Assembly (NCBI GenBank): GCA_030590485.1 | Contig: JAUUYL010000003.1 | Coordinates: 6,977 to 70,976 of the forward strand | Source: Lentisphaerota bacterium | Lineage (GTDB): Bacteria > Verrucomicrobiota > Kiritimatiellia > UBA8416 > JAUUYL01 | Direction: 5' to 3' | DNA length: 64,000 bases | In this document: piece after piece, positions 5,673-30,897 of the stretch | Numbering within the stretch: position 1 is the first letter of the stretch | How the letters are laid out: each line of letters starts with the position of its first letter | Position numbers and translations under genes: made by a program | Notes under the pieces: generated by a model | The model's input: the letters and a program-made list of their open reading frames with translations, nothing else | What the model was told of the DNA's origin: nothing | Databases searched by the model: none

Positions 5673-6629
5673 TCAAAGCTCTAACCGCTCACGCCGAACA
5701 TTAATAAGGTCTTCAAACTCCTCTTTCTTCTCATCAGAGATAAAGCTTTGTTCAATAAATGACAAGACCGAAGAGATATTCGATACGACTCGTTCATATG
5801 CATTGTCTGCCTGCTTGTCATTCAACCCTATAGCCCCGGCAAAGGTGTCAAAATCACGGCGCTTCAGTTTTGCTTTCTTTCTGTTCAACGCAAGAGCGAT
5901 CTCTTCTGGATCATCAGCCTCTGAAATTAGAAGTCTGGTGGCAACAAGGTCATATGCCGGTGCCAACTGAACAAGATCCATCTTAGAATAATAGAGAGAG
6001 AAGTTCTTCAGGTGCATGTCAGCATTTCCAGTCAGGAAACAAAACAGCGTTATATCGAAGAGCTTGGTGATATCCAGCAATGGATGAGAAGAATACTCAC
6101 TGATAGCTTTCCCAATATTCTCCATGGAACTCCGGTATTTCTGCTCCGTCAACCGCTCTGTCAACTGACACATATCCTCCATGTGATGTATCTTCTTATT
6201 CTGAGTTCTGTCTATTCGCTTTGTAATATACGCCAACTCGCCAGAGTTAAGGCGTATCAGCCCATGAGCAACTGTCTTTATTCCGCATAACTCCGCAAGA
6301 TTCATAGTCAGGTCTTCAATTTCCGGCATCTCCGGATATTTCCTTACAGGAGGCTTCAGTATATAATCCCCCCATAAACCTACGAGAGTGAACTTGCCAG
6401 AAGAATGCTCTGCTTTCTCAAGATGTAAGGACAGTTTCTCCTGCACACCCGGAATGGTTACGCTACTCTTAACAATATTCTCAGCCAACGCCTCCAGCTC
6501 GTCCAATGCGTAAGGCATCTCGGGCGGAGTTGTCTTGCCGAAAAGAGACTTACTACAGGCCGGATGATACTCATTCTCTGAATCATCCAACGGCTGATAA
6601 CAACGCAAACATTTCCCTGTTATACTCAT
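5673..6629 (-). CDS. hipT: HipT-like Ser/Thr kinase toxin (HipA core kinase domain without the N-subdomain)
   Basis: It carries a Gly-rich loop VTIPGVQEKLSL (HipA ISVAGAQEKTAL), a catalytic motif GNADMHLKNFS (HipA GATDGHAKNFS) and a downstream AP-YDLVAT motif. Its stop/start overlaps the upstream hipS-like gene by 4 nt (ATGA). Confidence 0.85.
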   Translation of the reverse strand: MSITGKCLRCYQPLDDSENEYHPACSKSLFGKTTPPEMPYALDELEALAENIVKSSVTIPGVQEKLSLHLEKAEHSSGKFTLVGLWGDYILKPPVRKYPEMPEIEDLTMNLAELCGIKTVAHGLIRLNSGELAYITKRIDRTQNKKIHHMEDMCQLTERLTEQKYRSSMENIGKAISEYSSHPLLDITKLFDITLFCFLTGNADMHLKNFSLYYSKMDLVQLAPAYDLVATRLLISEADDPEEIALALNRKKAKLKRRDFDTFAGAIGLNDKQADNAYERVVSNISSVLSFIEQSFISDEKKEEFEDLINVRRERLEL

Positions 6630-6967
6630 TCGGCGTTATCTCCATCAATGGGCAGCGCGCCCACCATCCCAATGCAATCCTTGCAACAGGCAAGCAGAAG
6701 CCCCATCCTGTCATGAACATCTATCTTCCATGATCTATGAGCAATATCCAGGAGCCAGCCTTCCGGAATCAAACCATCAAAAAATGGAAACATGTATTTC
6801 TCATAAAACGGTTCTGACTGAAGCGGAAGCGTAAGACTGACACCCATGGATTCAGGATTCTCAATATACGCATTCTCATATGTAAAGGTATACCCATCGT
6901 CAGTCTCAGTCAGAATCCCTGCAATGACGTCATTATACAGTATGCTTGCTTTTCTATTCATGTTCAC
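6626..6967 (-). CDS. hipS: HipS-like protein (stand-alone HipA N-terminal subdomain)
   Basis: The 113-aa ORF resembles the HipA N-subdomain (the CKDCIGMVGALP block parallels HipA RDSVGAV). It is translationally coupled to hipT. Confidence 0.8.
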   Translation of the reverse strand: MNMNRKASILYNDVIAGILTETDDGYTFTYENAYIENPESMGVSLTLPLQSEPFYEKYMFPFFDGLIPEGWLLDIAHRSWKIDVHDRMGLLLACCKDCIGMVGALPIDGDNAE

Positions 6968-7172
6968 TTCTTCTCTGCTTCGGAGTCGGACTCATCTCAT
7001 GCCCGAACAAAGCAAGAACCTGATTAACCTTTTCCATATCCAAGCTCTTTTTCCCCTGCTCCATATCACGAATAAAGCGCAAACCAACACCAGCCCTATC
7101 CGCAAGATCCCTCTGCGTCATTTTCAACAGCTTACGCTTCTCCTTAAGAAACTTTGACAAAGTATTTTTCAT
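6954..7172 (-). CDS. hipB: HipB-like XRE-family HTH transcriptional regulator
   Basis: The roughly 72-aa ORF has the helix-turn-helix LKMTQRDLADRAGVGLRFIRDME. It overlaps the hipS start by 14 nt. The track ORF begins at GTG 7178, and an in-frame ATG lies at 7172. Confidence 0.75.
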   Translation of the reverse strand: MKNTLSKFLKEKRKLLKMTQRDLADRAGVGLRFIRDMEQGKKSLDMEKVNQVLALFGHEMSPTPKQRRSEHE

Positions 7173-7185
7173 AACCACAATACAA

Positions 7186-7284
7186 TATACCCGCTCGGGT
7201 ATATTGTCAATATATTTTTAGCCATTTATACCCGTACAGGTATATATTTTACTCAAAGCTGTTGAATATACCCGTTCGGGTATA
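7186..7284. promoter_or_regulatory. array of three 18-bp palindromes TATACCCG-NN-CGGGTATA (candidate HipB operators)
   Basis: The palindromes are at 7186-7203 (perfect 8-bp arms), 7227-7244 (one arm mismatch) and 7267-7284 (perfect arms). Centre-to-centre spacing is 41 and 40 bp. The array starts 14 nt upstream of the hipB ATG. E. coli HipB operators are TATCC-N8-GGATA palindromes. Confidence 0.6.
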
Positions 7285-7528
7285 TTCGGCTCGCAATTAC
7301 ACGATTTGTAGCAAACCCGTAACAAAATTCATGATTGCTGAAAAGTATATATCGCCATTACTCAACATTCATAAGCTATATCTGAGTTTCCAATCGTATA
7401 ACTATGGCGGTCTTGCGCACTGCCACAATTGCTCCAACACCCCTTATTTCACTGTATAATTTGTTACCTGCTCTTTCAAAAAAGCTTGCTGTTACAGTGC
7501 TAATACCCCATATTCATGCCCTCTTCAC

Positions 7529-7616
7529 GGAGGGGTGCCAGAGTGGCCGAATGGGGCGGTCTCGAAAACCGTTGATCCTTACGGATCCGTGGGTTCGAAT
7601 CCCACCTCCTCCGCCA
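7529..7616 (+). tRNA. tRNA-Ser (anticodon CGA), CCA encoded
   Basis: The 88-nt cloverleaf has acceptor GGAGGGG/CTCCTCC, an anticodon stem GCGGT/ACCGT with loop CTCGAAA, a long variable arm TGATCCTTACGGATCCG, a T-arm GTGGGTTCGAATCCCAC and a 3' GCCA end. Confidence 0.9.
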
Positions 7617-28418: not shown

Positions 28419-29345
28419 TTAAAGCAATGTCCTGACAACCTTAGTCCACACCGGCGCTTCCGAATCATTTTGCACACGCTCAGCAATATCGCACGCGTGT
28501 TTCTCGTCTCGCGCCAATCCAAAGACCGACGCACCACTGCCAGACACAAGAACTCCGATTGCACCCGCCTTTTCAATGTCTTCTGCTACAATCTCAATTA
28601 ATGGATATTTCGTAAAAACTGTCTCCTGCAGCCCATTAAACATGCATTGAGAGACTTTGTCCACGTCCCCTTCCTTTAAACAGGAACACATACTACTAAA
28701 GGGAATTGCCTCAGAAGTCAAGCCCGAGCTGCAACGGGTATATATATCCTTTGTGGAGACCTCAAACTGCGGATTAACCAATACAAGCCATATTTCTTCT
28801 AAACCATTGGTGCTAAGCGCACTAACCCTTTCTCCTGCGCCTTCTATCACCACCATTCCGCCATGAATCAAACTGGGAATATCGCTACCCAATTCAGCGC
28901 CAATAGCCATAAGTTCCTCGAGCGGCAAATTCAATGCCCAAAGGTCGTTCAATGCTCGTAAAACTGCGGCCGCATCAGAACTGCCGCCGCCAAGCCCTCC
29001 GCCAATCGGTATATTCTTCTCAAGATTAACTTTTACACCACCCTGACAACCGGTCTTGTCGCGCAACAAACGTGCCGCTTCGGTCACCAGATTGCCCTCG
29101 GAATCCTCCACACAATCCCCTCCAATATCTTTAAGACACGGTGACGGTGTGGTGATTGTCTCTATACGCCCATCTTCGGTGGCTTCGATGTTTAATATAT
29201 CGCACAGAGAGACCGGAACTACCACGCTTCTTATCTCGTGATATCCGTCATCTCTCTCACTCAGCACCTCAAGGTACAAATTGACCTTTGCAGGAGCCTC
29301 AACAACAATGGTTTTTTTTCCAGACATGAGGGGCGCAAATACCAC
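28419..29345 (-). CDS. ispE: 4-diphosphocytidyl-2-C-methyl-D-erythritol kinase
   Basis: It has GHMP kinase motifs (PAKVNLYL near the N-terminus; Gly-rich PIGGGLGGGSSDAAA). Confidence 0.85.
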   Translation of the reverse strand: MVFAPLMSGKKTIVVEAPAKVNLYLEVLSERDDGYHEIRSVVVPVSLCDILNIEATEDGRIETITTPSPCLKDIGGDCVEDSEGNLVTEAARLLRDKTGCQGGVKVNLEKNIPIGGGLGGGSSDAAAVLRALNDLWALNLPLEELMAIGAELGSDIPSLIHGGMVVIEGAGERVSALSTNGLEEIWLVLVNPQFEVSTKDIYTRCSSGLTSEAIPFSSMCSCLKEGDVDKVSQCMFNGLQETVFTKYPLIEIVAEDIEKAGAIGVLVSGSGASVFGLARDEKHACDIAERVQNDSEAPVWTKVVRTLL

Positions 29346-29505
29346 ACCGAACCAATGGTGTCAATGCTTTATTATAGACAATAGGCGATTGGTGATTGTA
29401 GTATTAAATGTCGCAGGTGTAAAAAGGAGCGTTCCAAGCCAAGGTGCGCTTTCTTTCTATCAGTGTATCTGCTTAACAATAAGTGCAATAAAAACGGAGT
29501 ATATA

Positions 29506-30897
29506 ATGAGCAATAAAAGAACAGATGTCGCAAGGATGACTTTTTGCTTTATCACATTGCTGGCAACGTGTCTTCTGACGACTGGTTGCGGTTCAATTCG
29601 TTTTTCAACCTCGCTCCGCACAGATCCAACAATAAAAAATATGCAGGTTGCGGACGGTGTGAAGTTCTCAATCCGTCAATATACAGCAAATCAGCACAAG
29701 AAAAGAACTTCTCGCATATTTCTCTTTGATCCAATAGATATTGCGCCCATCACCAGCGTCTCGCAAGTGGACTTATCTAATCATGCCACACAGGTTTATC
29801 CACGCTTGTTTGGTGATAATTTTACCGATCTTCCTCTTTCTCTTATTGTCTCTGGCAAATCCTCGAGCTTTGTGCTGGGCGAATGGTTACAATGCCTTAC
29901 GTTTGCAACAGTTCCATTCCCTTCATGGGCCCATGTTAACTGCAAGGTTCATGTTACGGCTCAAGGAAACCATGGCTACGTAGTTAATAGAGCGGAACAC
30001 TTTAAGCAGAATTTCAGTTGGTGGCGATCCGTTTATACGCCTCTGGGCATATTACCTATTCCTGGATTCTCCGATGCAAGAGATACCTCTTTCGGTATAA
30101 TGGGCTATGTTTCCTTCGGCAATAATTGCGCTGGCTATAATAAGAATGCATTAACCATGGACTCTCTGATAGAGGCTGTCGCCCAATGCGTCAAACAGGC
30201 TGACCCTGCAAAGTTAAAGGCTGCATATGAAAGCCGTAAAGCAAGACTTCGGCAGATTGAGATCCATGGACAGACTTATTGGTCCTTTATGGGGCTTGGT
30301 TACGCCAAGGGTAAAGATGAGCCTGCGGAAGCCCGCGTCTTGCTTTATCGCAAATACCCTACATGGGAAATGAAGCCTATTGATAAAGTCGTCATTGCAA
30401 GAAAGCGGATATCAAACGACAAATGGGAAGCTGTAACCAATTATTTCGGGAATATACAGGCAATAGCAACTGCGACTGCGCTTATAGTTGACGAGAACCC
30501 TGTAAAAGCTGTCATTCAAGAGGTCGATAAGCCAGCGCTGGAAGACTGCTTCAGAACGCCTTCACGTTTAGCAGGTGCATGGGGCGCCCGTTACCTGCGA
30601 TGGAATAACGATGCATTGCTGGAAGCAAAAAACCGTACTCTGCCTGACTTCGTTCAAAAACGAAGCGAGCAGGATCTGCTAGACTTGATAATAGCGGCGG
30701 AGAAGGAAATATTGAAAATCAGTGAGCTGGCAGAAAGCGCCAAGAACCGTGCCCAGCGAATTGTTGGACTGGGCGGCAACCCTGAAGCAAGTCGGCAAAT
30801 GTCTGTCGTATGTCGTCAGCGTATTGAAATTATCAAGGTTGTCCTCAGAAGCTTGAGACAAGGCCTCTCTGCAAGACAACGTGCATCTGCGGAATAA
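29506..30897 (+). CDS. hypothetical lipoprotein (463 aa)
   Basis: A signal peptide with lipobox LLTTGC follows ATG 29506, and an RBS-like GGAG sits 8 nt upstream. I recognised no family. The track ORF starts further upstream at 29281, probably non-coding leader. Confidence 0.5.
   Translation: MSNKRTDVARMTFCFITLLATCLLTTGCGSIRFSTSLRTDPTIKNMQVADGVKFSIRQYTANQHKKRTSRIFLFDPIDIAPITSVSQVDLSNHATQVYPRLFGDNFTDLPLSLIVSGKSSSFVLGEWLQCLTFATVPFPSWAHVNCKVHVTAQGNHGYVVNRAEHFKQNFSWWRSVYTPLGILPIPGFSDARDTSFGIMGYVSFGNNCAGYNKNALTMDSLIEAVAQCVKQADPAKLKAAYESRKARLRQIEIHGQTYWSFMGLGYAKGKDEPAEARVLLYRKYPTWEMKPIDKVVIARKRISNDKWEAVTNYFGNIQAIATATALIVDENPVKAVIQEVDKPALEDCFRTPSRLAGAWGARYLRWNNDALLEAKNRTLPDFVQKRSEQDLLDLIIAAEKEILKISELAESAKNRAQRIVGLGGNPEASRQMSVVCRQRIEIIKVVLRSLRQGLSARQRASAE

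Follow-up and report, generated by a model that had tools for sequence, protein, structure and literature searches.

In Escherichia coli K-12, the operators of the hipBA operon have the sequence TATCC-N8-GGATA and are present in four copies (Black 1994, Schumacher 2009/2015). Four copies are also found in the HipBA system of S. oneidensis, where the operator reads GTGTA-N6-TACAC (Wen et al. 2014, PMC4150777) and where ITC with HipB found no cooperativity between adjacent operators (PMC4150777). Among the tripartite hipBST systems, HipB of E. coli O127:H6 is both necessary and sufficient to repress its operon, repression being stronger when HipT is co-expressed (Baerentsen et al. 2023, PMC10627512); the operator sequence is not defined in that paper. 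In Legionella, HipB binds three conserved 18-nt inverted repeats, as proven by EMSA; the proximal repeat, located 24 nt before the start codon, overlaps the predicted promoter (Lin et al. 2023, mBio; PMC10653801). Read from the published oligonucleotides, the Legionella operator is TTACTG-N6-CAGTAA, O1 being TTACTGCTATAACAGTAA. Neither HipS nor HipT alone binds promoter DNA, while HipT-HipB-DNA and HipS-HipT-HipB-DNA complexes do form, and the authors suggest an intermediate occupancy of the operators (PMC10653801). These operators are stated to be the first identified for any HipBST system, operator sequences being defined only for Legionella, and homologues of HipBST(Lp) are said to occur widely across the FCB superphylum (PMC10653801).

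The hipBST Operon of the Window

The window, that is, the whole 64-kb stretch of DNA analysed here, contains three adjacent and co-oriented genes whose products match, in this order, the Pfam families HTH_3, Couple_hipA and HipA_C, the arrangement that defines a HipBST module (Table 1). The window probably derives from a Kiritimatiellota (PVC group) MAG, its RecN sharing about 60% identity with RecN of Kiritimatiellae MAGs. The genes are tightly packed: hipS overlaps the end of hipB by 14 nt and hipT overlaps the end of hipS by 4 nt. HipB scores 75.5 bits on NCBIfam TIGR03070 (couple_hipB / Y4mF family antitoxin; cutoff 71.65), and a profile built from 45 HipB homologues matches HipB(Lp) (8ezt) at an E-value of 4e-10; E. 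coli HipB was not reached by this profile at E<=0.1. The AlphaFold (AF2) model of HipB (pLDDT 83.7) comprises helices at residues 2-16, 20-27, 31-39 and 46-54, of which residues 31-39 constitute helix 3 of the HTH fold. The closest structural match of this model is HipB(Lp) (TM 0.75-0.82); the HipB proteins of P. fluorescens, E. coli (3dnv, TM 0.72) and S. oneidensis (4pu7, TM 0.74-0.83) come next. HipT aligns over nearly its full length with Legionella pneumophila HipT (Lpg2370; 7vkb/8ezr) at E 2e-47, as against E 2e-15 for E. coli O127 HipT (7ab4) and E 2e-5 for HipA (4pu5). With both HipT and HipB closest to Legionella proteins, sequence similarity places the window module among the Legionella-type HipBST systems. 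It shares its gene order with HipBST of E. coli O127:H6, whose HipT is only distantly related. PADLOC returned only weak and generic matches on the window.

Table 1. Genes, putative promoter elements and palindromic sites of the hipBST region (coordinates in the window).
Feature	Coordinates	Strand	Description
hipT	5673..6629	minus	318 aa, HipA_C kinase core; presumed toxin
hipS	6626..6967	minus	113 aa, HipA N-terminal subdomain, Couple_hipA / TIGR03071; presumed antitoxin
hipB	6954..7172	minus	72 aa, Pfam HTH_3; recognition helix residues 31-39
Putative -10 hexamer TATTGT	7182..7187	minus	17-nt spacer; shares its first two bases with the end of operator 1
Operator 1 (proximal)	7186..7203		TATACCCGCTCGGGTATA, perfect palindrome, within the -35/-10 spacer of the putative hipBST promoter
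Putative -35 hexamer TTGACA	7205..7210	minus	1 nt upstream of operator 1; consensus match
Operator 2 (middle)	7227..7244		TATACCCGTACAGGTATA, one inner-arm mismatch (CAGG for CGGG)
Operator 3 (distal)	7267..7284		TATACCCGTTCGGGTATA, arms perfect

Compared with 7vkb, HipT keeps the catalytic motifs GNADMHLKNFS (GNEDMHLKNFS in Legionella) and PAYD (identical in Legionella). In the Gly-rich loop (window 6440-6470), a Thr stands where Legionella HipT has its autophosphorylated Ser54 (VTIPGVQEK versus MSVQGVQKK); the roles of these residues are taken from the names of the published Legionella oligonucleotides. At its N-terminus, HipT carries a CxxC...HxxC motif, CLRCYQPLDDSENEYHPAC (residues 7-25, window 6555-6611), possibly a small zinc-binding element, and the HipT proteins of Legionella and Cytophagales begin with a related Cys-containing segment (MKHCPITYE and MNRCPITYEPCG, respectively). 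A Logan contig (L001:1-2170, SRR18920793, equivalent to window 7254-5084) is 99.86% identical over 2.2 kb and differs by a 1-nt indel, as a result of which hipS is called there as only 65 aa; either the antitoxin gene is frameshifted in that contig or an assembly is at fault.

Three Palindromes Upstream of hipB

An earlier note on this DNA had described three 18-bp palindromes spaced by 41 and 40 bp in front of hipB, and the sequence reads as claimed: the motif TATACCCG-N2-CGGGTATA is found at 7186, 7227 and 7267, with start-to-start distances of 41 and 40 bp and gaps of 22-23 bp between neighbouring sites. A search allowing up to three mismatches found no further copy in the 64-kb window; shuffling gives an expectation of 0.07 sites per 64 kb, and three sites were reached in none of 100 shuffles. 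A repeat finder extends the repeat unit to 22 nt, AATATACCCGnnCGGGTATATT. All three sites, operator 2 included, match perfectly the core TATACC-N6-GGTATA of the family described below and, as three 18-bp copies upstream of hipB, they form an operator array in the usual sense of a 16-18 bp inverted repeat present several times in front of this gene. The sites had been placed about four helical turns apart on one face of the DNA, which stands as an approximation: at 10.5 bp per turn, 40-41 bp correspond to 3.8-3.9 turns, so that the phase is not exact and operators 2 and 3 lie on roughly the same face, just under four turns apart. Elsewhere in the window, two weak matches to the core at 30034-30051 and 30082-30099 (two and one mismatches, respectively, 48 bp apart) were judged to be chance occurrences, since they fall inside a 538-aa ORF (29281-30897) and their frequency is at the chance level.

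The best analogue of this array is not, as had been proposed, that of E. coli hipBA; Legionella HipBST, with its three EMSA-validated 18-nt operators and the nearest HipT and HipB, is closer. Both the Legionella O1-O3 and the window array belong to a tripartite operon, consist of three 18-nt inverted repeats of 6-N6-6 layout upstream of hipB and have a proximal operator near the start codon, which overlaps the predicted promoter in Legionella and a putative one in the window. The sequences, however, are distinct (TTACTG-N6-CAGTAA in Legionella versus TATACC-N6-GGTATA), so that the window sites are not Legionella-type operators; the gaps are 53 bp (71 bp centre to centre) in Legionella versus 22-23 bp (40/41 bp) in the window, and the HipB helix reads KTVIYDIEKGK in Legionella versus LRFIRD.EQGK in the window's family. 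Binding is established by EMSA in Legionella and predicted for the window HipB. By comparison, E. coli K-12 hipBA also has an HTH HipB dimer acting at several palindromic operators of 18-bp span on its own promoter, but it is bipartite, encodes a full-length HipA and has four operators, more closely spaced, whose inner 8 bp are not conserved. The half-site had been called different from that of E. coli, and the K-12 consensus is indeed not matched; the difference between TATAC-N8-GTATA and TATCC-N8-GGATA nevertheless amounts to one base per half-site over the same 18 bp, with the inner CC(C)/(G)GG conserved in addition in the window's motif. The S. oneidensis system likewise has repeated palindromic HipB operators, upstream of and partly within the operon, and a matching HipB fold; it differs by its 16-bp site, the opposite arrangement of its half-sites and its bipartite nature. 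The window motif thus matches no published consensus and falls outside each specific operator type, while it would work like all of them. In open-access papers and preprints on the motif, y4mF and HipBST operators, no description of TATACC-N6-GGTATA was found, and this operator consensus is apparently undescribed.

The hipB Start and Its Putative Promoter

The hipB ATG at 7172-7170 of the minus strand agrees with the N-termini of the homologues, which upholds the distance of 14 nt claimed between the proximal palindrome and the start codon (13 nt lie between the two). On the same strand, TTGACA-17-TATTGT scores 10 of 12 as a consensus match, and its spacer is essentially operator 1. The array had been said to overlap both promoter and RBS; the former holds for operator 1 and a putative sigma-70-type promoter, the latter does not, as no recognisable RBS precedes the window hipB. 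In the closest relatives (L214-L218 and L121, HipB 72-83% identical), the proximal operator is without exception preceded, at a distance of 1 nt, by TTGA. The ATG of L214-L218 (HipB 79-83%) follows the proximal operator by 13-14 nt with no Shine-Dalgarno-like sequence in between; in L121 (HipB 72%), the distance from operator to ATG is 36 nt, and the Shine-Dalgarno-like GGAAGGG stands in front of the ATG. The predicted transcription start of hipBST would fall near 7175, leaving a leader of about 3 nt. With the ATG 13 nt from operator 1 and no Shine-Dalgarno sequence before it, the hipB mRNA is probably leaderless or nearly so.

In Firmicutes and Spirochaete loci, the elements are nested in the same way: TTGnnn comes first and, after 1 nt, the operator, at whose position 17 the -10 element starts. 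About 35 nt of leader, including a Shine-Dalgarno sequence, follow in these loci. Family-wide, a TTG at this offset precedes only 20 of 141 proximal operators, TTGACA at this offset is absent from most members, which are largely Bacteroidota, and in some loci the -35 element sits before the middle operator instead. The layout of a promoter wrapped around the operator is thus not extendable beyond the window's relatives and Firmicutes- or Spirochaete-like loci, and lineages may differ in the position that the promoter takes with respect to the operators. Bacteroidota use different promoter elements, which is probably why this position is not uniform.

Occurrence of the Motif across Loci and Genomes

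Two samples, one drawn by protein and one by motif, bear on the association between palindromes and hipB. For the first, 80 metagenomic loci were fetched by HipB protein similarity alone (55-72% identity), the query being an alignment of HipB homologues, and the motif was ignored. Within 300 bp upstream of hipB, at least one operator-like site is present in 80 of 80 loci, at least two in 79 and at least three in 59. Of the 146 pairs of neighbouring sites, 140 have a spacing of 40 or 41 bp. As a background measure, 130,217 positions downstream of hipB contain 11 such sites. The presence of the phased motif upstream of every one of these protein-ascertained genes supports the earlier reading of the palindromes as HipB operators.

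For the second sample, the exact pattern (16 specified bases) was scanned in one genome per species across 185,579 species, giving at least 119 loci, and HipB homologues beside the sites were sought by tblastn with the window proteins. Among the matches listed, a HipB homologue (41-71% identity) directly adjoins the site in 69 of 119 loci, most of which continue with hipS and hipT, and there is essentially one locus per genome; motif and hipB are thus found together in both samples (80/80 and, among the matches listed, 69/119). These 69 loci, again among the matches listed, are in their majority from Bacteroidota, the others being from Clostridia/Lachnospiraceae, Pseudomonadota, Spirochaetota, Bdellovibrionota, Ignavibacteria and further groups. 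When up to four mismatches are allowed, exactly three sites is the modal number upstream of hipB (43 of 71 cases among the matches listed, namely 70 upstream regions from the motif scan plus the window's own), and the distance between neighbouring sites is 40 bp in 37 pairs and 41 bp in 90, together 127 of 130 pairs among the matches listed.

The remaining 50 of the 119 listed loci lack a detectable hipB, and about 36 of these, among the matches listed, are lone single sites. As simple arithmetic predicts about 139 chance matches to 16 specified bases in 596 Gb, the number of such singletons is compatible with chance. Phased partner sites accompany about 13 of the 50 hipB-less loci (among the matches listed), and these look like remnants or block-edge cases. 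Phased pairs or triplets with no detectable hipB are seen at L095:2280-2520 and in L021, L041, L066, L069, L084, L101, L104 and L115; the three sites of L095 precede an ORF of 11 codons, and arrays of this kind are probably decayed hipBST loci.

Viral contigs (IMG/VR) contain 13 matches, none of them beside hipB, hipS or hipT, and by a rough estimate the count of single matches looks compatible with chance. Seven viral matches have phased partners (L204:7543-7629, L209:5636-5725, L210:2623-2681, L211:645-702, L203:9099-9143, L213:4467-4511 and L201:2108-2207), forming sets of two or three palindromes 27/28, 40/41 or 82 bp apart; in L209 and L213, the palindromes adjoin tRNA genes.

Short palindromes with a GC core and AT-rich flanks can be repeat elements, and operator 1 was flagged as terminator-like on both strands by a promoter/terminator scan, so that a generic dispersed repeat (REP/MITE-like), lying upstream of hipB by chance and devoid of regulatory role, had to be considered; the earlier note had itself raised the eventuality of a repeat common throughout the genome. 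A repeat of this sort would be expected neither to be confined to hipB in the window, where all three sites of the 64 kb lie, nor to travel with hipB across genomes at essentially one locus each (among the matches listed), nor to stand at fixed phasing in 80 of 80 hipB loci ascertained by protein; exact matches in species genomes are either hipB-adjoining, phased remnants or singletons at chance level. Uniqueness in 64 kb and both genome tests lead to the rejection of this reading as far as the data reach, and we regard it as next to inconceivable.

The number of operators appears to be linked to the presence of hipS/hipT: none of 116 hipB genes with hipS/hipT downstream has a single site, versus 6 of 13 orphan hipB genes (Fisher p = 3e-7), each of the 13 having at least 500 bp of downstream sequence. 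Single-operator hipB genes without hipS/hipT are located at L019:3316-3597, L043:1698-1979, L114:2279-2560, L117:189-470, L094:3833-4063, L074:3057-3254 and L065:1974-2189, and a nearly identical orphan hipB copy is common to several Clostridia MAGs.

A Possible Mobile Cassette Next to a tRNA Gene

Beyond operator 3, at a distance of 245 bp and on the opposite strand, lies a tRNA-Ser(CGA) gene (7529-7616) that is divergent from hipBST. Taken together with the two viral contigs in which similar sites adjoin tRNA genes, this neighbourhood might suggest that the array acts on the tRNA gene instead of on hipBST, or that it is the mark of an integration site. The array, however, adjoins the start of hipB and not the tRNA gene, and in the close relatives L214-L218 the array and hipBST occur together in unrelated surroundings: no tRNA is nearby, and what lies upstream is AhpC, an epimerase or an AAA ATPase. 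The similarity of these relatives to the window (7285-7330 compared) stops just outside the distal operator. A function tied to the tRNA gene is therefore extremely improbable. The unrelated contexts and the end of similarity just past operator 3 rather suggest that the operators and hipBST move together as one cassette.

Operator Consensus and the HipB Recognition Helix

A frequency matrix of the 225 sites of the protein-ascertained set defines the family core as TATACC-N6-GGTATA, each arm position being 81-99% conserved; in full, the matrix reads T95 A86 T84 A96 C99 C96 C91 G64 A76 W (A52/C39) (G55/A36) G98 G95 T95 A81 T89 A93 (percentages). The arms keep their sequence instead of covarying, and inner positions are often non-complementary (CCCGAAAAGG is common): position 12 is G in only 55% of the sites, versus 91% C at position 7.

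This pattern helps to decide whether the palindromes would act as RNA, in the form of 5'-leader hairpins, terminators or attenuators, instead of as protein-binding DNA. Each site can form a stem-loop of at least 8 bp, one of them is the terminator-like element mentioned above, and some proximal sites of Firmicutes could be transcribed if the promoter lay upstream. The arms, however, show no covariation, and the inner stem positions are frequently unpaired, as in CCCGAAAAGG; strict 40/41-bp phasing is a property of duplex DNA and, with the best promoter of the window, none of the three sites lies downstream of the predicted transcription start. Conserved, non-covarying arms combined with fixed 40/41-bp phasing are characteristic of DNA sites bound by protein, not of RNA hairpins, and operator 1 was called terminator-like as a consequence of its palindromic nature. 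A role at the RNA level is thus very improbable.

Among 146 motif-associated HipB homologues, residues R13, Q20, G28, G30, L31, R32, F33, R35, E38 and K41 are 97-100% conserved, and the recognition helix LRFIRD.EQGK is 94-100% conserved, with identity over the whole of HipB going down to about 46%. An alignment with 434 Cro, read in the light of what is established for 434-type HTH proteins, would place L31, R32 and R35 at base-contacting positions. In three Cytophagales MAGs (L046, L060 and L090) with a Legionella-type hipBST, HipB has a Legionella-like helix, GVGKSVIFDLEKGK, and this hipB is preceded by three Legionella-type sites (TTACTG-N6-CAGTAA-like), for example TTACTGTTATAGCAGTAA. Helix and operator change together, an argument for HipB itself being the protein that reads the sites. 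In the same MAGs (L046:200-900, L060:1790-2260 and L090:3650-3920), one or two TATACCCG-N2-CGGGTATA sites are present 200-250 bp further upstream with no matching Y4mF-type hipB; they may be the remnant of a replaced cassette.

The sites might alternatively be bound by another regulator, either a global factor of the host or HipS/HipT themselves, and the arrays with no detectable hipB in genomes and viral contigs do indicate that no neighbouring hipB is required for the motif to be retained or used. Unrelated phyla, however, share no host regulator, and yet the motif goes with a HipB of invariant recognition helix whose switch coincides with that of the operator type; as for HipS and HipT, they have no DNA-binding domain, and in Legionella neither binds promoter DNA alone (PMC10653801). 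Recognition by a protein other than HipB is accordingly improbable.

Proposed Mechanism of Autoregulation

On these grounds, it is highly likely that the three palindromes are the HipB operators of a Legionella-type hipBST operon subject to negative autoregulation by promoter occlusion. In this model, in which HipB binding, promoter occlusion, transcription start and cooperativity are all predicted elements, a HipB dimer would sit on each 18-bp site and place one recognition helix (residues 31-39, LRFIRDMEQ) in each outer half-site (TATACC / GGTATA). Because operator 1 fills the 17-nt spacer between the -35 and -10 elements, HipB bound there would exclude RNA polymerase and shut off transcription of its own operon. 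Operators 2 and 3 would most likely raise the occupancy of the promoter site by cooperative contacts, possibly mediated by HipT/HipS bound to HipB. Given the lack of cooperativity in S. oneidensis and the intermediate occupancy suggested for Legionella, cooperativity is not a given.

A bolder and rather unlikely extension of HipB autoregulation gives the array the role of a scaffold on which a higher-order repression complex assembles with the help of the toxin side: HipT/HipS-HipB would bridge neighbouring operators, the occupancy of the promoter would reflect the HipB:HipS:HipT state (conditional cooperativity), and operators plus genes would spread from phylum to phylum as one self-contained cassette. 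The single-site counts (0/116 versus 6/13) are a supporting hint for toxin-dependent bridging, compatible with it and no proof of it. Much less likely than such a scaffold is the use by phages of the hipB-less phased viral arrays to titrate or exploit HipB.

Implications for the HipBST Family

The kind of control proposed here is the one expected of a type II toxin-antitoxin operon autoregulated by an HTH protein and leaves the accepted picture unchanged. What the sequences add is, apparently, an undescribed and clean class of operators, conserved together with their spacing across phyla. The Legionella-type HipBST clade is large, common in Bacteroidota and present in many other phyla, with operators so far known only in Legionella; TATACC-N6-GGTATA, in three sites 40/41 bp apart, provides a testable recognition sequence for its HipB. 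The motif could also aid the annotation of hipBST promoters and of decayed loci. That operator number goes with the presence of hipS/hipT points to toxin-dependent cooperativity as a question, and the near-invariant pairing of operator and helix, set beside a second class of HipB with another helix and another operator, constitutes a natural pair for the study of HTH-operator specificity.
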